Assembly (NCBI GenBank): GCA_013265495.1
Contig: MU058226.1
Coordinates: forward strand, 644,741-708,740
Length of the DNA: 64,000 nt
Direction of reading: 5' to 3'
Origin: Vicugna vicugna
Lineage: Eukaryota
The notes beneath the pieces are model-generated. The model saw only the letters and a list, made by a program, of their open reading frames with translations. It had not been told where the DNA came from and searched no databases. Below are positions 2,440 through 64,000 of the stretch, piece after piece (within the stretch, counting starts at the first letter, position 1; each line of letters starts with the position of its first letter). The translations under genes were made by a program, and so were the position numbers.

Positions 2440-3681
2440 TTTTAAGAATGTAATTGTTTTAATTTTTTTTTCCCTAAGTCAACAAAATATATTTCTTAAT
2501 TTTTTTTCTCTGTGATTTATCATAACATTTTGTGTATATTTCCCTGTGCTATACAGTGTAATCTTGTTTATCTATTCTACAATTTTGAAATCCCAGTCTA
2601 TCCCTTCCCCCCCTCTACCCCCCCCCCCCGGTAACCACAAGTCTGTATTCTCTGTCCATGAGTCTATTTCTGTCCTGTATATATGCTTTGTTTTTGTTTG
2701 TTTGTTTGTTTGTTTGTTTGTTTTTGTTTTTTAGATTCCACATATGCGCGATCTCATATGGTATTTTTCTTTCTCTTTCTGGCTTACTTCACTTAGAATG
2801 ACATTCTCTAGGAGCATCCATGTTGCTGCAAATGGCATTATGTTGTCGGTTTTTATGGCTGAGTAGTATTCCATTGTATAAATATACCACATCTTCTTTA
2901 TCCAGTCACCTGTTGATGGACATTTAGGTTGTTTCCATGTTTTGGCTATTGTAAATAGTGCTGCTATGAACATTGGGGTGCAGGTGTCATCCTGAAGTAG
3001 ATTTCCTTCTGGGTACAAGCCCAGGAGTGGGATTCCTGGGTCATATGGTAAGTCTATTCCTAGTCTTTTGAGGAATCGCCACACTGTTTTCCATAGTGGC
3101 TGCACCAAACTGCATTCCCACCAGCAGTGTAGGAGGGTTCCCCTTTCTCCACAGCCTCTCCAGCATTTGTCATTTGTGGATTTTTGAATGATGGTCATTC
3201 TGACTGGTGTGAGGTGATACCTCATTGTAGTTTTGATTTGCATTTCTCTGATAATTAGTGATATTGAGCATTTTTTCATGTGCTTTTTGATCATTTGTAT
3301 GTCTTCCTTGGAGAATTGCTTGTTTAGGTCTTCTGCCCATTTTTGGATTGGGTTGTTTATTTTTTTCTTATTGAGTCGTATGAGCTGCTTATATATTTTG
3401 GAGATCAAGCCTTTGTCGGTTTCACTTGTAAAAATTTTCTCCCATTCCGTAGGTTTTCTTCTTGTTTTATTTCTGGTTTCCTTTGCTCTGCAGAAGCTTG
3501 TAAGTTTCATTAGGTCCCATTTGTTTATTCTTGCTTTTATTTCTTCTAGGAGAAAATTTTTGAAATGTATGTCAGATAATGTTTTGCCTATGTTTTCCTC
3601 TAGGAGGTTTATTGTATCTTGTCTTATGTTTAAGTCTTTAATCCATTTTGAGTTGATTTTTGTATATGGTGTAAGGGTGTG
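2440..3681 (-). mobile_element. Young 5'-truncated LINE-1 (ORF2 C-terminus plus 3'UTR)
   Basis: Uninterrupted ORF2 C-terminal frame ([29 protein letters not shown]...[16 protein letters not shown]). Perfect 15-bp TSD tctctgaactatttt (2425-2439 and 3682-3696). Confidence 0.95.
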
Positions 3682-3744
3682 TCTCTGAACTATTTTCTAA
3701 AATTTTTTTAACTTTTTAAAAATTTTAACTTTTTATTTTTATTA

Positions 3745-34624: not shown

Positions 34625-34960
34625 CTAGAAAAAGAAGAGAGAATCATTTCAGAATTGTATCCCCCCTCCAAGCCTTCACCATGGACTCCTTCAGGAATCT
34701 TCTCCCCCTTTAAACCATCTCCCTCAGTCACTGGTCATTCTTCCAGCCTTTGTTCCTTCTTTTGTCCCCGTTCCCACAAGTCAATAGTTACCTCTGCACG
34801 TTGATTGGCTCGTCTGGTTCTAACTTGCTATTTCTCTTTAGTAACTTTCTCTTGATCTTTCTTTCCTCCCTATCTACCCCTAACTTGGTGGCCCTACTAT
34901 TCATACCCCATTTCCTTATGTTCCTGCTGCTCCTTCCCCCAGGAACTTTCCTATATATTA

Positions 34961-35689
<729 letters not shown>

Positions 35690-49154: not shown

Positions 49155-49658
49155 CTGTGAGAGGAGAAAAGAGGAATGAGTACCATCTGCCATGCTGTTT
49201 GCTTTCCTCAACACCCATCTCAGGTCCTTTGATTCTCTTCTCCCGGACCCTGGGAACTTTGGCTTACTGCTTCCCCAAGATTCCATCCAAACCTTGATCC
49301 TTATTCCAGCCCCAGATCCAATACACTGAGTCCCAAACTTTATCTGCAATTTCTTCTTCTGTCTTATTTTCCCTATCCTAATATCCCCTATTCTCACACC
49401 CTAGACTCTATCTCTAACCTTCAAATTTTCCCTACTTTATACCTTTTTCTCCCAGCTACAGCTTGCTTCCTAATTTCACTTTTCATGTCCCACACATCTA
49501 TTTTCTCCCCCCATAGTTTCCACCACCACAGCCCCTCTATTACCATCCCACAAACCATATGTCTTTTCCTAGACTCATTATTCCCTCTAGTGCTGGTCCA
49601 TAACTTTTCAACTCCCTATCCCATGGGTTCACTCCCCTGGGGCATAACTCTCCCTTAC

Positions 49659-50821
49659 CAAGAAGATCAGGCCAATGAATACCAGGAGGAGAATCACACT
49701 CAACAGGACCACAACAACTATGGCCCATGCAGGGAAGGAATCATTCTCCCCCGAGCTATTCTGGTGTGGTTGGCTCTTGCTGCTAGGGGCTTCTGATGTG
49801 ATGGAAGGGGCTCCTGTGGTCCTCTTGTGGCCTGATGTGTTATTTCCTCCATGTTCCATGGGTTCTGCCGAGGCACCTGTGGTCCTCTCGTGACCTGGTG
49901 TGATCTTTCCTCCGTGTCCCGTGGGCTCTGCCGAGGCGTCTGTGGTCCTCTCGTGGCCTGGTGTGGTCTTTCCTCCGTGTCCCGTGGGCTCTGCCAAGGC
50001 GCCTGTGGTCCTCTCGTGGCCTGGTGTGGTCTTTCCTCCATGTCCCGTGGGCTCTGCCGAGGCGCCTGTGGTCCTCTCGTGACCTGGTGTGGTCTTTCCT
50101 CCATGTCCCGTGGGCTCTGCCAAGGCGCCTGTGGTCCTCTCGTGCTCTGGTGTGTTCTTTCCTCCGTGTCCCGTGGGTTCTGCCGAGGCGTCTGTGGTCC
50201 TCTCGTGACCTGGTGTGGTCTTTCCTCCATGTCCCGTGGATTCTGCTGAGGCGTCTGTGGTCCTCTCGTGGCCTGGTGTGGTCTTTCCTCCATGTCCCGT
50301 GGGCTCTGCTGAGGCGTCTGCAGTCCTCTCGTGGCCTGGTGTGGTCTTTCCTCCATGTCCCGTGGGCTCTGCCGAGGTGTTTGTGGTCCTCTCGTGGCCT
50401 GGTGTGGTATTTCCTCCATGTCCCATGGGCTCTGCCAAGGTGCCTGTGGTCCTCTTGTGGCCTGATGTGGTCTTTTCTCCATGTCCTGTGGGCTCTGTTG
50501 GGTACTCGTTGCTTGTTTCTCTTCTGATTGTTGTGCGCTTATGACAAGTTGTCTTGCTGTTGCGTGTTGTGGCTGCCTGTTTTTCAACAGATCCCGCACT
50601 TGTGCTAGTGATTGTGCGTTCATTCCGGTTACTTAGGCCTTCTTGATTGCTGGCATTTTGTTCAGAAGTCAGAGGTGCTTCAGGATGAGTTACAGAGTTT
50701 ATGGAGTTATCTTTAGCCTGGTGATGGGGTGTGGTATTGCACTGATGTTTTGGCTTACTGGATTCTGTAGCTTTAGGGAGGTCTGGAGAGCTGGTTCCTG
50801 AAGATATTCCGTCAGAATAGC
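49659..50821 (-). CDS. MUCL3: MUCL3 exon 2: mucin ectodomain with tandem repeats and TM helix
   Basis: Open frame (ORF 49629..50840) with KHQCNTT, AEPTGHGG repeats and GENDSFPAWAIVVVVLLSVILLLVFIGLIFL|gtaagg (phase 0). The 5' boundary is uncertain: the orthologous acceptor before 50896 reads AA, so the in-frame acceptor ttccttccaactccag|GC at 50821 is used here. Confidence 0.85.
49806..50498 (-). repeat. Coding VNTR of MUCL3: 11 x 63 bp (21 aa, AEPTGHGGKTTPGHERTTDAS)
   Basis: Units counted directly in the translation; internal copies are nearly identical. Confidence 0.92.
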
Positions 50822-53800
50822 CTGGAGTTGGAAGGAACAAATGAATGGATGGTGGTAATTCAGGAGTTTGCCGAGATGTTTGAAGTGTGATAACACTTGT
50901 GAAAGGAGAGAAGCGAATAAGAAACTTTCTCCATCCTCTTCCCTACTTCCCTTCTCACTTCATCTCTAGGGGTCCCTTATTACCCGAGGTGTGTCCCCCC
51001 AGCCAGTCTGTTCAGAATATTGTGATATCTAATCCCCATTCTCACCTCCAGTCCCTGGACCTTTGTTCAGGCTGTGCTTTCAGCAAGAATGCCACCCCTC
51101 TCCTCTCCATCTCTACTCTTCAGTTCTCAATTTCAGATCTTTCTACCTTTATGGCATCTTTCCACCTTTATGGCATCTTTCCTGATCTTTCCAAGCTGAT
51201 AAGATCCAGCTTCATCTCAGTGCTCAAAAAAAATTCTTTGTTAGTTACTCTTTCCTGCTACCTTCAACTTGACCTTACAGTTGTTTGTGTGCTTGTCAAC
51301 TTCTACCTCCTGTCTGGCTTATCACATTGTAAGATTTTTTTTAATTGAAGTATCATCGATTTACAATGTTGTGTTCGTTTCTGGTGTACAGCATAGTAAT
51401 TCAGACCAAATTGTAGGATTTGAATAGTACACATTGACTGGCATTTTGCTTTGCAAGTGCTCCCTTAGGGTTTATATACTTATGGAATGGAGTTGCCTTT
51501 TCCATGGCAGAGCTGAGAGGCAAGGGAATAAATATGAGAATCTCCATCTTTCCATAATATTCCAGCTCCATCCCAGATGTAACTGTGTGAGAGACTGAGG
51601 TTAAGACCTCTGGCAACACTTCCCACCGGGATTAGTAAGTAGGCACAGGGGACCAGTGAGAGGATATGAGGAGGGGTGGAGGATGCGTGGAGGAGGGGAT
51701 GGGAAACTTTCATTTTGGTGATTAAAGTTGGTCTGGATTCAGGGAAGCAGATGAGATGATTCAGCCCTTATGGTTCCCCACTGGCTCCCCCTCTTCACGC
51801 ACCTGAAGCCGTCTGGGATAGAAGAAGGTGGCCTTTCTGAAAGAAGGATATCTACCTGGGGGTCCTGGGAGGCGTGAGTGGGACAGCTGCATTCTGGGAG
51901 GGACTGGCTGTGTTTAAGGACAGGGTGTGAGGGGAACACTCCTATCGATGAACAGATATTGGCTGTAAATCCATGGAAGAACAACCAGTGGGGACAGAGG
52001 AGGTGTCTCTGATATCTAGCCCAGAGAGTGCAAGCCAGGAGATCACCGGAGAGTGAGAGAGAGACAGTGGGGTTATAGGACTGAGATTTCCAGGCTCTGT
52101 TAGCTCAAGGTGGCAACCAGAACCCAGACACACTCCCAATCCCAGGAAACCATGATATGCCCACTTCCCTGCTGACAGGGAGGGTTGAGGGTTGCGGAAC
52201 TCAGTCCTTGAAAGAAACACAAGTGGGATGAGAAGAGGGTGAGGGTGGGAGAGAAGTCCAAGTCTCTAATGGGATTCGAGGTTGGGGAGAAAGAGGAGGG
52301 CTGAACTGCCAGGTCCTCACTTCACCGGGCCAGTTCCATTCTCTAATTCCTTAGGCAGCAGTACCGACAAGGGCCATCACTTCTTGGGCCCCTTCTCTGG
52401 GTCAGATGCTCGACTGGGTTGCCCCACAGTTGTCCTCTTTCTGGGTTGTCCTCTCGGGGTACTGACTTCCCAGCTCCCCATGAGGTACTTTAGAAGCTGT
52501 CAACTTCCCTATTTTATAGCCAAGAAACTTGAGTTTCATGGAGAAATGGTGACTTGCACACAATCCCACAGCCACAACCATGGCTGACCTTTCTGGAACA
52601 CTCACTGTGAGACAAACAGGTCCTCAGGAGGAGGACGTATATTAACTCATTTACTTTTCACAACACCCCTTTGAGGTAGAGAACTATTTGTTAGTCTCCC
52701 CTTTTTATAGACGAGGAAACAAGGTTCAGAGAGGTTAAGTAATCTCCCCAAAGACACCCAGCAAGTAAGAGGTTGAGCCACAACTTGGAACACACATTCC
52801 GGGCTCCCAGGGCCAGGTTTTTACTGGTTAAGACCACACTATACATTCTATAGGTCAAGTGTGTTTTATTCATCGCTATGTCTCCAGTGCAGAATGTCTG
52901 GTCCATAGGAGGCACTTCATAAATATTTGTTGAATGGATGAATGAGAGAGAATATTTTAAGACTGGTGAAAACTCTTCAGAAGCCATGCCAACAACTTTT
53001 TGTTATGCACATTAAGTAAAATCAAGCATAACTGTGACCACCAAAGATTGGAAGACCAAGGGGTAACTTCTGCTGTGTTAAGTAATTGAGTCCCTGAGAT
53101 GAAAAGAAGTTGGAAGAAGGTTTCTAACCCACCGGTTTTGGGCTATTGGTTGTTATTTAACCATAGGAACCACACAGTCAATAATTAGACTCAGATAACT
53201 AGATCTTGGAATTCTAGATCTGCATCACATGGTTGTGGATCCATCAATTAGAAAATCTGGAGTCAAAACTCAAGGAGTCCTTGGTCCTGAGCTATGAAGC
53301 AAGTCAGTGACTAAACTCCCAGGATGAGAGGACCATCTCTCTCCCCAGGAGATCTACCATTGGTAGCAACTTTATTTTCCTAGGAAATTCTCACCATGAG
53401 CTGTTCATTCCCCTAACTACAACAACGGTCTGAAAAAAACCTTTTTGGTCACTTTTTGGCAGAGAAGAAAATCTGGTTTTAGCATAAGACACTGGAGGTG
53501 GATGCCTAGCCTGGATGAAAGAATGGAAACAAATCTCACAACATCGAAACTATATACAATTCCAAAGGCCTCTTCAATCTGCTTTATTCACTCATTTGAA
53601 AAGAAGATGGACATCCTGCTAAGTGACTTGTGCCTTGGGGTTTCTGTCAGAGCAGTCTCACTTTAGAAGAGCGTTTCTGGTGTTTCTTGGTGTCCTGCCC
53701 TTCAAAAATGACTTACTCCATTTGCAAAAATTAAATGCTTGCTAAAATGTCCATACAGTGTAAGTTCAATATGTGACCTAAATCACAGACAGAGTCAAAA

Positions 53801-56044
53801 GACTAAAAAGAAATACACTCAAATGGTTGCCTGGGTGACAACAAGAGCTGATTAGGAGAGATTTGATTTTTCTTCCTAATTTTTTTTTCTATTTTCCAGT
53901 TTCTGAAATGAGCAAGTATTATTTTTGTGGTAGAAATTATGACAGAACTGTAGGCAAATGTCCTTTTCAGATTCTCTTCAGGACCCCAGCCCCAACTGTG
54001 CTTTCCTCAGCGATGATTTAATCTAGGTTCAGCTCCTATGGTTCTGTGGCAGCGTGATGCAGCCCCTGGGGTTCTAGGGTCTCATGATCTGCATCTGGGG
54101 TTGGCTGACCCTATGGACAAATGGCAGGTCATACCCCAGAACTGTGAGCCAAAGGTCTCCATCCATTCTGCTCATCACTCTTCCCTCTCTGCCCTGACCT
54201 CACTCTCTGCTGGACACGGTCATCGCCCAACCCTGACTCACACTCCAGTTCCACCCTGTGCCCATCCCAACCCCACCTCAGCTCAAACCCTCCTCACCCA
54301 TCACCTTTTTGCTCTTCTCTGTAAGATCTGAGCAAGACCAGAGGCTCTTGCCCTCCCTACCTGTCCCCTCCATCCCGGCTAGCCAAGTTCTAGCATGCCA
54401 TCTCCCAGACCACACCCACAGAGCCTAGCGTGTCCTGCACTCAAATTCGGATTTCAAGTCCACCCTGTGCCTGTCATGTGCCCTAGAATAAATCGCCCTC
54501 AAAAGTGAATGTGAGAAGAAAAAGGACGGGGGAAATGTGTGTGAGTTGATTTAGGACGCATTCCCTTCTGCCCCCTACAGGTTCTGCATCCTGGGCAGCA
54601 ACACCAACAGGAGGGGGTGGAGAGCAACAGGTGGGACAATCAGCCTGACCGGAAGGGGCAGAGAAGGTGGGTGAGACTGGAGAGTGGGCGGCTGAGAACG
54701 GCTCTGGTGCCTCTGTCCCCAGACCTCCAGGTGGGAGGAAGAGCATCAAATCAAGGCACTGCTGAGACCTAGCGGACACAGCTCAGAGCTTCCTCAGCCC
54801 CTGTCCCTGCTGTCTGCCAGCTGCCCAGGCTACCCACCCAGTTCCCCCTGAGCTCGGGGGAGGAGAAATCCTGTAACATCACCCTTGGTCAAACACTATG
54901 GGAAGGAAAAGCTGCCACCTGCCCCACCCCCAGTACTGCCTGGAGCATCCAGATGCATGACTTTCCCAGCCCTGGTTTGGGGTCATCAACGCCATTACCA
55001 TGGATGAGCCCATGCAGTACTCAGAGAGACTCTCTGAATCTATTTTTGCCAAGCATCTACCTTGTGAAGACCCTCCTCCGATTCGCCCAGGCCCCTCTAA
55101 ACTGCCCCTGTGTTTGGGCACCTCCGCTCCCTGGGCTCAGCCTCAGAAATATCTCTTCACTAAGTGAACTAATTTGGCAATTTCGCTTTAACTTGGAGGG
55201 TCTGTTTTGCTCATTAAACTTTTCCATATTTACTTTCTCACCTAAGCCCTGGGATGTTTCCCAACTGTAAAACGGGGACAAACCACACACACCTTTTCAA
55301 GTAACTGTGAGGATTAAATAAGCAAACATGGAACAATGCCTGGTGTATAGTAAACACTTAGGAAGCTGCAACCGTTGGCGTCAGCCAGGCAGCATCCTTC
55401 CCGTTTTGCAGAAGCCCAGACGAGTTACGTGGGTCAGCACCCACATTCAACACTGAATAGGGCTCTTGGGAAAGAAATGCACCCTATGCCTCCAAGGGCG
55501 GTGGCGGGGATGGTGTGGCAGAATCCCTGTTTGCCACCGTGACTTTGGACAAGCCCCTTTACATCTCTGACTCTCACTCTCCTCTTTAGAAGATGGGATC
55601 ATTATTAACCACCCCAGGGGATTTGAGGACATGACGTGAAATGAAGTATCTCAAGCATCTGTGAATTCCTTGCACATAGCAGGTGCTCTGGGAGTGTCAG
55701 GTCCTTGCTGCTGCCCACCCCAGACTACTAGCCCAAACGGTGTCTATATCCAGACTAGCAGAAGCCCCTTCTTTGGTGGCTGCAGCCTTGCAGGCCATGT
55801 CTTCAGGAGCAGAGCATAGGCTGTATTTCACCTCTGACATGCCCCTTAGCCAGCAAACTTGAGCAGTGAACACCCTAGACAACCAAATGCGGCAGCTCCG
55901 TACCCACCCCACGTCCCACCACACATTCACCTGCTGCTCATTTCTATGATTGGCCATCAACCCTATGAGTGGTAAGATACAACTCCCCTCTGCCTTCTAT
56001 CCCCCTGTGTGATAGTGACCCCTTCGCCTCTGAGAGCATCTTAC

Positions 56045-56123
56045 CTGCCTCCAGAAAGAGAAAAAGGAGAAAGCAGCACTGGAGAACAAAGATGGAACGG
56101 AGACAGTGGGCGAGCTGGGCCAT
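56045..56123 (-). CDS. MUCL3: MUCL3 (DPCR1) exon 1, signal peptide
   Basis: ATG at 56123 gives MAQLAHCLRSIFVLQCCFLLFLFLEA-G|gtaag (phase 1). It resembles the recalled human MUCL3 N-terminus (MAQPVHSLCSAFGLQCCLLFLL...). A TATA box lies ~50 nt upstream. Confidence 0.85.
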
Positions 56124-56171
56124 GATGGAGCTGGACGGCTGCTTGAGGCTGTGGGCTGGGGTCCCCTCAGC

Positions 56172-56196
56172 TTATATAGGCCCAGGTTTGACGTCA
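56172..56196 (-). promoter_or_regulatory. MUCL3 core promoter: TATATAA box plus a perfect CRE palindrome TGACGTCA
   Basis: TATATAA on the minus strand at 56172-56178; TGACGTCA at 56189-56196. Confidence 0.6.
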
Positions 56197-58043: not shown

Positions 58044-59173
58044 TTTTTGTTGTGTAGATAAACGTCTCCTTCTCTTTTAGGCACAGCTTCCTCCAGAGGA
58101 CACAGACATCTTGGGTGGAGGAACCTGGAGGTAGGTGGAAGCTCACATGGACCTCTTAGTGTCAGTAGAGCTTGCTGTGTCTGAGCTAGAGGCTGAGGGG
58201 CCGGTCACAAAACAACCCTTCCCGCTACTGCTGTGTCAGCTGTTCCAGCTACTGAAGCATGCTGAGCACCGTACCTATGAGGCTGTAACCTACGAGGTTA
58301 GCAACGTCAGCCTCACTTTACAGATAAGAACAAACAGTCTCAGTTCAGGGAAGTGACTTGTCCAGGGTCACACATCTTGTAAGCAGCAGAGACTAGACCT
58401 GGCTGGTGCCTGCCTGACAGCAAAGTCCACGCACTTGGACAAATTAAAAAGTGGCTGGGAGACCAGTGGAGGGGGTGCTGTTTTATTTAGCAAGAGTTGT
58501 GTCCACCACCCACCTGGAGTGGGCATCAAAGAACAGGGTTCCTCACCTGTTCGAGATGAGAGAATTGGGGGTCTTGAAAGGGTCAGAAGCCAGCCCAAGG
58601 GGGCTCCATATAGAAGGAGGTGGTAAGGGGGACCCTGGTCCTGTGCCCTGGGGGGGCCCAAACAAAGTATCCTCAGCCAAGGAGCTTCTCTGATAGGCGG
58701 GGAAGAGGATGGGAACAGAGGGAGGAAGGTTCCAATTGCCCAGACTCCGTGAGCCCTGGGAGAGCCCTGGAGATCATCCAGCCCCGGTGCTTCCTTCTAC
58801 AGAAGAGAAAACTGCATCTGAGTGGTTAGGTACCAGACGGCAGGCTGGCGGCAGGGCTGGGACTGGTATCTTAGCCTCTCATTCAGTGGCTGACAGTGGT
58901 CTTCCCCTTACACTGTTGGTGGAAGAGACCCGGGGTGCCAGTGAGCCCAGAAATCCACCCACAGGAAATGTCTCCAGTTAGTGTGAGTACGAAGGCTGAG
59001 TCCTGAATGAGTCTATTCAGGAGAGGAAGGAGGGAGGCCAAAGGCAGGGGGGCATGTGGCTATCCTGGCCCCGCCCTTTCACTTGACAGAGTAGCACTGG
59101 CTGGTGGCCTCATGGTGGCAGCTGTAGGAGTCACAGAGCCACAGCCTCACCCCACACTCATCTCCTTCCGGAA

Positions 59174-62100
59174 CTAGCAGCCCTGTGAAATGAGAGATGG
59201 AGAGGATGGGTTAACCGAGGGCCCCAGGAACCTGCTGGCCAGCCCTCAGCTCTCCCCACGGACTGCTGCCTCCCTCAATAACTCAGGTTCTCAGAGTGCC
59301 TCTTCCAGCAAAAACAATCATAATAATGAATTGGACTAATTTACTGAGCACTTACTATGTGCCAGGCACCTAAGTGCTTTACATGCATAAACTCATTTAA
59401 TCTTCCAACAGCCCTGAGATGAATACTATCCTTCTCATTTTATCCAAGACTAAATTACCTCATTGGTAGAATGAGAGGAATAATATTACCTATATCACAG
59501 GGCTGCTGTGAACTAAAATGTGGCACTTGGCACATAATAAGTGCTGTTCAAGTGTTAGTTATTATTATTATTCATGAGGCATCTGGAGCACAGAGAGGTT
59601 GAGTAACTTGAACAAAATCACACAGTTATAATGGCAGAGCCAGGATTCAAAACCCAGGTTCTGTAACTTCATGGAGTTGATTCTTCACTGCCTAGAGCTG
59701 AATTTAGTGCTTCCAGGGGCTGGTCAGCCTGCAGTGCTCCCCGGCCTCTCCTTCAGTGGCCGCATCCCTGCCTGGTCAATGCTTCTCAGCCACCCAGACT
59801 GGGGTTCCGTTTTCCCCTTGCCCCTCCCTAAGTGTGGCAGGCTGTCATCTTTTCCCGAAGCCCCTGTTCATCTTGAAGTTCCGGGGCACTAGGTCCCAGC
59901 CCCGCTGGCCTCAGAGACCCACATATTTGGACCATAGCTTCCACTCACCTTCTTAATACCATACAGTAGGCTGAAGACTGCTGTCACCACAGTGAGAGTG
60001 ATCAACACGATGGCCCAGTCTGGGACAGAGCCCTTTCTCTGAGGCTTCAGGCCTGAGGAACAGAGGGGGACAGTGACCAAGGCCAGTGGGACCCCAATGC
60101 CCCCATCCTCCACTGCCCTCCATGACCTCCCATCTTTCCTTCTGTGATGCTGATGTCTGTGCAATTCTAAGACCACGTTTCTCTGTGGAGTTCTGTCTTG
60201 TCATCTTGGGAACAGAATCTCACTAGAGGGGTTTTAAAGGGCATCAATCCAAGCCCCAGCCACTCTTCCCTGACACCTGTGGGCATGTCCTTCAATCTCT
60301 AAACTCCTCACTGACATCCACATCTCTCCATCTTTCTGAACCCTCCTCCATATTGCAGGCTCTACTTTCCGTGTCTCTCTCCACCTGTGATGTCTGCCCT
60401 GCAAGGGTCCCCAGGTGGGCCTCTCTCCTTCTTCTGAGGCCCTTTCCTCTCCACTGCCCCAGCCCAACTCTGGTCACTAAAAGGAGCCAGAGCTTGTTGT
60501 CCGGTTTTCTCTCCACTCATTTCTTGCCTTCAGACTGTCGGGAGAGGGTGAGAGGGGTAGACTAGGATTGAAGGGGCAGGGAGAAGGGGACAGAGGGAGG
60601 AGGGAGGACAGGATCTCTGGAAGGGATGCTTGTCGCCCTGGATAGGCAGATCGGGCCACAGGGAAAGAAGTCAAAAACCAGGTAACAATCAGGTAACAGA
60701 CATCTGGCTGCTGGTCTGACCAGAGGCTTTGAGAGGGCACTGAAACCCTTTTAAGAATTGGAGACATCCTCAGACATCCTCAGAACACAGTTGAAAGCAG
60801 GCACTAATGCCTGTCCCTACACTCATCTCCAGGAGCCAAGGTGCCTGCAGGTCAATGACCCAGTGCAAGTAAGAGTGCCTTACTGGTCAGGATGCTGAGC
60901 CCTGGGGATGTTGTGGCTGTGCTAGCCATGGTGGTCATGGAGCCTCCTGACACAGCCCCACTGGGTGTGGAAGTCCCAGGTACAGCTGAAGCAGTTCCAG
61001 GGGCTGTCATGGGGGAAACATATCCTAGAAGGGCAGAGGGGAAAAATGGCTGGAAGAGATCTGAGTGAGAGCAGAAGCAGAAATTATGTCTAGTGTCCTC
61101 TCCATTGAAATCCTGGGAAAGTTTTTTGGTAGAAATTGATCAACTGAGTCAATAAAAATGAAAGGATTGAGAATAGCTAGGACAATCTTAAAGAAAAACA
61201 AAAGTGGAAGACTTACACTACCAGATCTCCAGACTTGCTGCAAAGCTGCAGTCAGTAAGTACGGCAGCCCTGGAGTGAGAATAGACAGAAGAGAGTCCAG
61301 AAACAGACTCAACATGTATCTGGTGACTTGATTTTTGATAAAGAGATTCACACAATTCTATGGTGGAGAAAGAAGGGGGGTCTTTGAAATAAATAGTCTT
61401 GGAGCAACTGGTTATCTGTAAGGGGAAAAAAGGAAACTTGACCCCTACCTCACTCCATACACAGAAATTAAGCTGAGATACACCATAGGCTTACATTTGA
61501 AAGCTAAAGGAATAAAGCTTCCAGAAGAAAGAATAGGAGAATATTTTCATGACCTCAAAGTAGGCAAAAAAAAAAAAAATGTCAGGCAGGATACAAAAGA
61601 CACTATAAGAGAAAAAGTTGACATGTTGAAAAGCAGAAAGAGGGCCTTTGTATAGCCACCAAGGCCAGCGCACTGCTTCAGTGAGTTTCCAGGGAACTCA
61701 TATCTTACTCGTGGCAGAGAACCGGAAGCCCCCACCCAGAGCTATGGGCCAAGCTAAGGAGTCCTTCAGAGACAGATTGAGCAACAGAAATATCACTTGG
61801 CAACATTGACGCTGCTCCTGAAGTGCTCCCAGGAACTGTCAGAGATAAAGTCTGAGGACTACTGGGCAGCACCCCAGAGGCTGGAGAAACTGTTGGGAAA
61901 CTCGCTGAGATGGTGGGGAGATCTGCAGAGATGGTAGGGAGACCTGCAGAGATATCCCCAGAGGCAGGGGGTATGCCTTCAGCTACAGTAGAGATCCCCA
62001 ATGGGGTCAGCTGAGCTGTTGGAAGAAGAACATGATAAGATGGTGTCATAAGAGCTGGCCATCTCTCTCGGTCCAGTGTCCACATCTTGACCACAAGGCC

Positions 62101-62176
62101 TCAAGTCAGAGCTCCAATGCTCACCGTATCCAGCCAAGGCCTGCAGGCCCAAGATCAGTACCAGTGTGGTGTCCAT
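59174..62176 (-). pseudogene. Unnamed TM mucin-like gene A upstream of MUCL3 (5 exons; apparently disrupted)
   Basis: Exon 1 is 62125-62176 (caccATGG; MDTTLVLILGLQALAGY-G|gtgag). Exon 2 (61709-62015) is S/T/P-rich and ends in phase 2. Exon 3 (60884-61024) is S/T-rich, phase 1-1. Exon 4 (59949-60052) reads LKPQRKGSVPDWAIVLITLTVVTAVFSLLYGIKK|gtgagt. Exon 5 from 59182 reads GC* (TAG at 59174-59176). Confidence 0.7.
61100..61640 (+). mobile_element. Old LINE-1 ORF2 fragment in intron 2 of gene A
   Basis: ...agaatagctaggacaatcttaaagaaaaacaaaagtggaagacttacactaccaga... is degenerate ORF2 sequence. Confidence 0.75.
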
Positions 62177-64000
62177 GGTGTCAGCTGGTGTGTGTTTCCA
62201 GGACTGTCTCCCTGGCTCTTTAAAGACTTTGAGGCCTTATTACAAGTCTCGAGAGAGTCAGGTGTGCCTTGGCCTTCATCAACACCAGGATCTCCATCCC
62301 GAGGGAGAGGTCACCAAGCTGTCCCAGAGGATTGATCTGTTCCAGTCTGATCCCAGGAAGCACTGGGTGAGGGGAAGAGTGAGTAAGAGCCTGAGGATTC
62401 CCCTACTGGGCTCTCAGGCTCTTTCCAGATTAGGGATCTCTCCCCCAGACCCGAGTTGATCCCCAGCCCAGACTCCCATCGAAGGGAAGAGATCCAGGCA
62501 TCCTATCCCCAAATCCTCCCCTTGTTTCTAGAAGTACAACCACTGGGGGTGAGAATATATAGGTCCCTCGGGGAAGCAGGAATTGGGAGCTGGGTGGGGG
62601 TGGAGAGCGTCACCGCCTGGGGACTGCATCAGACCCTTAGGAAAACCCAGGGCAGGGGAGGAGGGTGAACACCTGGGCCATCTCTCGTCCAGATGGCTGC
62701 AGCCCACAGAGCTTTCCATTCCTTTGGCAGAAGAGGAGTGACAGGAGAAGAGGGGCACCAGGCACAACAAGCATCGTGTTCAGGGACAGTGCAGTGAGGA
62801 AGTTCAGAACCCAGCTCTGAATCCACCACTTCCAAGCAATGGGGTCTTGGGCAAGTCACGTGGCCTAAGTTCTTGTTTCTTCACCCCTAAAACTGGGGTA
62901 ACGCATCTACTTCAGAGGCCATAATTAAAGCATTAAAGGAAATAATGTTTCTAATGTGCCTGGCATGGGACAGCCTCAGCTCTGATTATATAGAAAGAGG
63001 GCGCCAGTTGGGAAAGATATAGGGATGCTCCCACCCTCCTCCTATGCAGACTCAGATGCCGGAAAGCAGCTGTCTTCCCACTTTCTACCCTCTGCTCATA
63101 TCTGCTAGGTCTGCTGATCTTTTTGTCCATCAATTCTTCCCGCTCTGGTCTTCCTGCTCTCCGGTGCGAGTCTGGGAGTCCCTGGATTGCACTTTATTTA
63201 TATTTATGGTATCGACAGTGTCTCCCTCTGCCTCTCCATTTCCCTGGTCTTGCTTTTGCCTTTTCTCCCTGACTCTGCCTTCTCTGCTTCCATCCCTCTG
63301 TGCTGGGGCCCACTGGGTTTTTTAGGGGTGGGTTGTAGATACTTAGGGAGGCAGCTAATAAGATAAGAGGCATGTGTCTTTGTATGCTCTAGAGGGTTTA
63401 CGTGACTGGTGCGTCAGTCTGCTGTGCTTATTCTGTGTCTGGCATCATGACGGATGGGTTCTAACCTCTCTGCTCCTGACTTGCTGTGTGACTTTAATAA
63501 GTCAATAAGTCTCTCTGGGCCTTCGTTTCCCAGCTTTTAAAGAAAGAGGGTAAACACAATGGGTTCCAAGCTCCCTCTACACATCTGTCCTCATGTTTGC
63601 CATTCCAAGGCCTGTGTGAAAGGGTGTTGGCTGAGGGGATCCCTTTTGCGTGAGTGCACAAGGCGGGGTGGATGGGAGGATGTTTGAGGAAACTCGTGTC
63701 TCCACCTAAATAGCTAGGATGTTTCAGAGCAACTAAAACAAAACATTCAAAATGAAAGTTCCCTGTCACCCAGATTTCTCACCTAGAAAGTCAGCTGTGG
63801 CTGGGGGGACAGAGCGCCTGGGTTTGGGAAGAGCTTTATGTAATCCACCCCTCCCTTTTGGGTGCACATTCCTGAGCTCTTTGGTGGCATGAATGATAGA
63901 AATTAATTGCAGTTAATAATTAATCCCTCAAGAGCAGTGACAGGCCCAGGCTTGGGTGGGGCCCAGACACCCACAGGACGGACACCTCCTCAACTTCCCT

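Follow-up and report, generated by a model that had tools for sequence, protein, structure and literature searches.

A 64,000-nt stretch of the vicuña (Vicugna vicugna) genome, positions 644,741 to 708,740 of the forward strand of contig MU058226.1 in assembly GCA_013265495.1 (hereafter the window), carries near its end a small minus-strand gene, located between SFTA2 and a MUCL3-like gene. This locus is probably the single vicuña orthologue of an unnamed, conserved gene for a small type I membrane protein, which appears to have lost its tail exon recently and to be a unitary pseudogene in the making. In the intact family, the product would start with a signal peptide that is cleaved off and continue with a short stalk (optional, Ser/Thr-rich and probably O-glycosylated), one transmembrane (TM) helix following the motif SVPDW, and a 34-residue Cys-rich cytoplasmic tail, whose juxtamembrane cysteines might be acylated (palmitoylation) or bind a partner. 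In this genome the tail exon contains two premature stop codons and lacks one nucleotide, and the locus could therefore make at most a tail-less protein ending in ..GIKKGC; such a product would be 101 aa long if exons 1, 3, 4 and 5 are joined, or 174 aa (by our own arithmetic) if exon 2 is included with a donor at 61797. Few parts of the family are as conserved as the tail, and its disruption therefore suggests a recent loss of the ancestral function. The broken locus may still be transcribed.

Exon anatomy and orthologues

A preliminary description, prepared from the DNA letters of the window, had listed a TTTAAA element, a Kozak ATG, a signal exon and a total of five exons, and each of these was confirmed in place on the minus strand, with every junction conforming to GT-AG (Table 1). 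The start codon lies within a caccATGg context, and exon 1 shares 67–88% identity with the first exon of the reindeer, Rousettus and human models (tblastn); cleavage of the signal peptide would be expected after its ..ALA motif. Exon 3, with a Ser+Thr+Pro fraction of 0.51 over 47 aa, is 74% identical to the Rhinolophus sinicus protein P0007 and 60% identical to the reindeer protein P0006 (tblastn), and when included would provide an O-glycosylated stalk. In exon 4, the core running from DWAI to KK has 16–20 of its 24 positions in common with the named orthologues. Joining exons 1, 3, 4 and 5 gives an open frame of 101 aa, as had been proposed for a form skipping exon 2; the frame stands, but it does no more than reproduce the exon layout of the reindeer model with the tail removed. 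The predicted topology is that of a type I membrane protein. An AlphaFold2 model of the Rousettus orthologue, built on an alignment of 11 sequences (A1), contained helices at residues 2–15 and 29–62, the former in the segment equivalent to exon 1, with a mean predicted local distance difference test (pLDDT) score of 59.8 and a low-confidence tail (<50). A profile search of the PDB with the family returned no matches at E≤10.

Orthologues in other mammals, which the preliminary description had proposed to look for, were recovered. The TM exon, to which six codons of intron sequence were added to satisfy the 40-aa minimum for a query, was searched against 5.8 billion proteins and matched five out of 15 candidates, with E values of 2e-11 to 4e-8. 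A cattle entry of 86 aa (P0005) bears the name “diffuse panbronchiolitis critical region 1-like”, and the reindeer protein P0006 is 133 aa long. With P0006 as query, 17 proteins out of 148 candidates were matched at E≤0.01, and 16 proteins at E≤0.001 among 1.84 billion representatives. Named models were found for nine species, i.e. cattle, reindeer, Rhinolophus sinicus, Rousettus, Pipistrellus, Myotis brandtii, Myotis myotis, human and Ochotona, including human LOC124901299 (XP_047275580.1 and other isoforms; the human UniRef entry A0ABJ7HAP4 has 108 aa), R. sinicus LOC141571854 and Ochotona princeps LOC131481837, while the other matches were unnamed open reading frame (ORF) calls on genomic contigs. 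One protein from the P0006 search, P0024 (355 aa, with proline-rich repeats), was discarded as a low-complexity match.

The models have a common layout of exons 1, 4 and 5, giving 80–108 aa. The reindeer model in addition includes exon 3, with boundaries exactly as in the window, and the R. sinicus model begins inside exon 3; the cattle, Rousettus, Pipistrellus and human UniRef models, four in all, are devoid of any Ser/Thr-rich exon. The orthologue exons map to exons 1, 3, 4 and 5 of the window at 60–88% identity (tblastn), and the LOC124901299 models correspond to it exon by exon within that range: a signal exon ending in phase 1, a TM exon with SVPDWAIVLITL..YGIKK and a tail exon are found in both. 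The candidate gene also lies where a member of this group is expected, between SFTA2 and the MUCL3-like gene and on the MUCL3 strand, the synteny of the orthologues themselves being visible indirectly, via a fused model (P0004, see below). The difference lies in the tail, which is open in the LOC124901299-type models and interrupted by a TAG, a TGA and a 1-nt deletion in the window, leaving homologous sequence that cannot be translated. A search of the vicuña genome with the candidate gene returned only this locus at E<1, and the gene is thus single copy.

Some entries need to be read with care. Two bat entries labelled “Mucin like 3” (P0008 from Rousettus, 86 aa, and P0010 from Pipistrellus, 80 aa) represent the small gene and not MUCL3, and several database records under the names “Mucin like 3” or “DPCR1-like” likewise represent either the small gene or fusions with it. 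The human 108-aa model (P0009) runs through the position of the ancestral stop and aligns, in a comparison with 59019-59126 of the minus strand, at 60% identity to sequence that is 3' untranslated region (UTR) in the window, so the end of the human tail is also altered.

The preliminary description knew of no named gene in this interval. This remains correct as far as a name is concerned, but human, pika, bats and ruminants are covered by LOC models in RefSeq and by UniProt entries; the gene is therefore already modelled in annotation, yet unnamed and unstudied. In the excerpted text of one report, LOC124901299 appears as one of five human major histocompatibility complex (MHC) genes without an annotated orthologue on a macaque haplotype (PMC10078292). 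Among the literature naming four genes of the region, no title concerned a new gene in this interval, and searches joining SFTA2 with PhyloCSF, or DPCR1 with SFTA2 and bats, found no literature. A sheep “DPCR1-like” gene, as it figures in the excerpt of PMC4613773, was not equated with the candidate gene, as it could be MUCL3 itself. The human long non-coding RNA XXbac-BPG27H4.8 (LINC02570), considered as a possible counterpart, was dropped, as the distances in the accessible part of a transcriptome-wide association study table place it ~0.1 Mb away by our own arithmetic (PMC12529646); in the portion of PMC6562477 available, this RNA is merely listed. The family lies in a disease-association hotspot of the MHC class I region, and the conservation of the tail between human and bats makes it worth naming and testing for function. 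A gene that annotation pipelines model, with neither name nor study, was here recovered from raw sequence, and the window offers a natural case of tail loss in the family.

Tail exon lesions and the fate of the gene

The tail of the family is 34 aa long and Cys-rich (in R. sinicus, for example, ACQFRKEMSVGCGCGSVTPYSCHQEATSQRYSVK), and its columns A53, C54, R57, E59, M60, G63 and C64 are invariant in alignment A1. In the window, a TAG at 59176-59174 (codon 3) stands in place of the Gln/Glu of column 55, a TGA at 59149-59147 (codon 12) replaces the invariant Cys of column 64, and a 1-nt deletion near 59126 shifts the frame, which then reads YSCHHEATSQCYSVK up to the ancestral stop at 59081-59079. 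Both stops had been noticed in the preliminary description, which had taken the tail to be decaying, whereas the deletion had been missed. Two extra replacements affect the invariant A53 (to G) and the nearly invariant R82 (to C). Lesions aside, 29 of the 34 positions of the window tail still equal those of R. sinicus, which suggests that the lesions are recent.

The lesions are probably fixed, rather than assembly errors or the state of one allele. That the gene is intact in the animal, with the three lesions representing assembly errors or a single null haplotype, is improbable. The assembly is indeed fragmented (12405 contigs), DNA runs under the species label contain 0.92–0.94 of the words of the locus and not all of them, and the rest of the tail is almost unchanged. 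On the other hand, two of the three lesions are stop-creating substitutions, which are not the usual type of assembly error, three independent changes fall inside ~50 nt, and the replacements at A53 and R82 come on top of these.

Several observations weigh against a unitary pseudogene in the making. Exons 1, 3 and 4 (297 nt) are free of lesions and have good splice sites (5.9–12.4 bits on a rough donor matrix). Under equal rates, three lesions would all land in the 102-nt tail with a chance of ~0.017, or ~0.065 given the first (own arithmetic), and this clustering mildly favors the persistence of a tail-less protein rather than a dead gene. Nonsense-mediated decay of the mRNA is not expected, given that the first stop belongs to the last exon. 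The proportion of locus words found in the DNA runs leaves some probability to an assembly error or a null allele, and the deletion adjoins a short pyrimidine run. Contigs from RNA libraries may contain pre-mRNA or DNA.

The RNA evidence comes from two RNA-seq runs of one study (X1 and X2), which contain 0.43 and 0.23, respectively, of the sampled words of 59050-62250. As about a quarter of this interval is exonic (own arithmetic), intronic sequence must also be present in these runs. Eleven further RNA rows (X3–X13), with 0.06–0.17 of the words, were not used as evidence.

These data also bear on a second explanation, in which the locus encodes a functional tail-less mini-mucin of 101 or 174 aa, consisting of a signal peptide, a Ser/Thr-rich stalk and a TM segment and anchored at an epithelial surface. 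The three open exons with their GT-AG sites, the location of all three lesions past the TM exon and the presence of the locus in contigs of the RNA runs would fit such a protein, as would the frame of exon 2, which in the phase set by exon 1 is open in just 716 of 20000 mononucleotide shuffles. Furthermore, the TM core has not diverged more from bats (19–20 of 24 positions equal) than from ruminants (19 of 24). The tail is, however, among the best-conserved parts of the family, so that its loss probably removes the main function, and with lesions as recent as the 29 retained tail positions make them look, an open frame upstream is expected by chance. A functional mini-mucin is accordingly a possibility to keep in mind, albeit a rather unlikely one, and we favor the recent loss of a conserved gene.

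Exon 2 and a fused gene model

Exon 2 is putative. Its Ser+Thr+Pro fraction is 0.40 over 102 aa, and the 7-aa repeat described earlier was confirmed as a 21-bp tandem repeat (Table 1). Exon 2 ends in phase 2 and exon 3 requires phase 1, as had been pointed out; this mismatch was taken for a lesion, with a G-run at ~61729-61737 as its putative indel site, but a GT at 61797 (CAA/GTGATA) would close exon 2 in phase 1 and bring exons 1, 2, 3 and 4 into one frame, and the mismatch may thus be a matter of donor choice. The donor at 61797 is the weaker one (3.1 bits, vs 5.3 bits for 61709; rough matrix). A 488-aa protein, P0004, aligns through its residues 19–60 with the first 39 aa of exon 2 in the same frame (60% identity, 26/43 aligned columns, E 6e-9), and the end of exon 2 in P0004 coincides with the window GT at 61797. 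P0004 is the one protein in which conservation of exon 2 is suggested: the exon was found in none of the in-frame orthologue models, no paralogue was found in the vicuña genome, a Pfam scan of the exon gave no domain, and a search with the exon 2 peptide against proteins of 178–2000 aa gave 0 matches among 1600 candidates, the range of 55–177 aa not being searched. Exon 2 could be coding but optional, could have decayed, or need not be an exon at all.

P0004 also raises the question of whether the exons are 5' extensions of the downstream MUCL3-like gene, used in read-through transcripts, rather than a gene of their own. This protein joins exon 1, the exon 2 homolog, exon 3 and exon 4 to the 5' UTR and signal exon of the downstream gene, where the window has a matching cag acceptor, separated from the downstream ATG by 15 nt and in frame with exon 4, which ends in phase 0, and the names “DPCR1-like” and “Mucin like 3” given to orthologues in their sources point in the same direction. 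Against this, all 11 sequences of A1 have a tail exon with an open frame and its own stop, an AATAAA follows 3' of the stop, and the downstream gene, whose TATA box lies ~3 kb downstream of the candidate gene, has its own ATG and signal peptide. P0004 itself shifts frame in exon 2 and in exon 3, and its exon 3 start differs from that of the reindeer model; it looks like a patched automatic model fusing the candidate and MUCL3-like genes. We therefore regard an origin as 5' extensions as very improbable. The claim of the preliminary description of a separate gene in the interval from SFTA2 to the MUCL3-like gene is supported, as the candidate gene has its own start, stop (TGA 59081-59079) and AATAAA, and the downstream gene its own TATA box and ATG.

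Mucin likeness and neighboring genes

The preliminary description called the gene a transmembrane mucin with a family motif, which was not borne out at the level of profile scores. Pfam Epiglycanin_C (PF14654) came up with the TM exon and with each of the four orthologues scanned, at 17.1 bits for the window exon, 11.6–15.3 bits for the four orthologues and 17.6 bits for P0004, all below the gathering cut-off of 27 bits. When A1 was compared by hhalign with ORFs of the window, the probability was 27% for the MUC21 ORF and 34%, over 15 columns, for the MUCL3-like ORF. In the candidate gene, MUC21 and the MUCL3-like gene alike, the TM segment is followed on its cytoplasmic side by a phase-0 donor. 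Common descent with the MUC21/MUCL3 TM region is a plausible hypothesis. A long Ser/Thr/Pro tandem-repeat domain is not present, the 21-bp repeat being the only one, and as the protein lacks such a domain its description can go no further than “mucin-like”. The earlier interpretation as an ancestral cluster member in decay is thus partly supported: the tail exon has decayed, but membership of the mucin cluster stays below threshold (17 vs 27 bits).

Compared with known systems, the candidate gene shares cluster and strand with MUC21, but the MUC21 exon of the window reaches 63.8 bits for Epiglycanin_C against 11.6–17.6 bits for the candidate gene and its orthologues, and, unlike MUC21, the candidate gene has no Epiglycanin_TR (PF05647) repeat, carries its TM segment on a small exon of its own and has an unrelated tail. 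MUCL3/DPCR1 likewise shares strand and cluster, and its juxtamembrane SFPAWAIVVVVL resembles SVPDWAIVLITL of the candidate gene, which differs from MUCL3 in lacking a long tandem-repeat exon; each of the two has a promoter and a signal peptide of its own. SMIM-type microproteins resemble the short isoform (80–108 aa; signal peptide, one helix and a short tail) but show no sequence relation to it, with Pfam Smim3 at 13.3 bits against a cut-off of 25. A broader scenario would have a microprotein family of primates, lagomorphs, bats and ruminants shrink from a MUC21/MUCL3-type mucin, with exons 2 and 3 optional or decayed and the TM segment and a new Cys-rich tail under constraint; in the vicuña, the tail would then have been lost while exons 2 and 3 are open, and a tail-less mini-mucin would be made on a mucosal surface. 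This scenario is speculative, and we think it unlikely to be correct in full.

The contig carrying the window is 1.09 Mb long, in an assembly of 2.03 Gb. The coordinates of the candidate gene and of its neighbors are given in Table 1.

Table 1 Features of the candidate gene and neighboring genes, in window positions unless prefixed L002
Feature	Position	Strand	Remarks
TATA-like TTTAAA	62224-62219	-	~45 nt 5' of ATG; read in sequence, promoter function presumed
Exon 1, coding part: ATG and signal peptide MDTTLVLILGLQALAGY	62176-62125 (52 nt; ATG at 62176)	-	Donor GTGAGC; end phase 1
Exon 2 (putative), Ser/Thr/Pro-rich	62015-61709 (307 nt)	-	102 codons open; donor GTAAGA; end phase 2
21-bp tandem repeat in exon 2 (7-aa ISAxLPT repeat)	61895-61953	-	2.8 copies; repeat detection
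Exon 3, 46-aa Ser/Thr/Pro-rich stalk	61024-60884 (141 nt)	-	Phase 1 to 1
Exon 4, juxtamembrane region, TM helix and KK	60052-59949 (104 nt)	-	Reads ..GSVPDWAIVLITLTVVTAVFSLLYGIKK (..SVPDWAIVLITLTVVTAVFSLLYGIKK); phase 1 to 0; donor GTGAGT
Exon 5, tail	59182-59079	-	Reads GC*FRKEMSVG*GCGSVTP from 59182; ancestral stop TGA 59081-59079
AATAAA, likely polyadenylation signal of the candidate gene	58487-58482	-	~600 nt past the ancestral stop; function presumed
MUCL3-like gene, TATATAA and signal exon	56043-56178 (TATATAA 56178-56172; ATG 56123)	-	Own TATATAA and signal exon; not part of the candidate gene
MUCL3-like gene, large repeat exon	49629-50942	-	Repeat-rich ORF; AEPTGHGGKTTPGHERTT-type repeats
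MUC21/epiglycanin exon	34958-35689	-	Epiglycanin_TR 82.4 bits, Epiglycanin_C 63.8 bits (Pfam)
217-aa ORF with TTEDYTTxDPG-type repeats and TM segment	15348-16001	-	Epiglycanin_C 25.1 bits (cut-off 27)
SFTA2, three exons	L002:282-890, just past the window end	+	ATG at L002:306 (window position 64306)

SFTA2 was identified from two exons (L002:579-890) scoring 57.3 and 52.5 bits with the Pfam SFTA2 profile. The candidate gene and SFTA2 are arranged head-to-head, on the minus and plus strand, respectively, with ~2.1 kb between their ATG codons, and the two may have a common bidirectional control region of ~2 kb. On the other side, the signal exon and TATA box of the MUCL3-like gene lie ~5 kb upstream of its repeat exon. 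We call this gene MUCL3-like (MUCL3/DPCR1) from its motif and the gene order, the name being assigned by no tool. The 217-aa ORF further along the window probably belongs to a further membrane mucin of this cluster. Part of intron 4 of the candidate gene (~59330-59650, minus strand) resembles, by eye, the core of a MIR-type short interspersed nuclear element (SINE). A 321-aa open frame at 2731-3696 (minus strand) resembles, again by eye, a fragment of ORF2 of the long interspersed nuclear element LINE-1.

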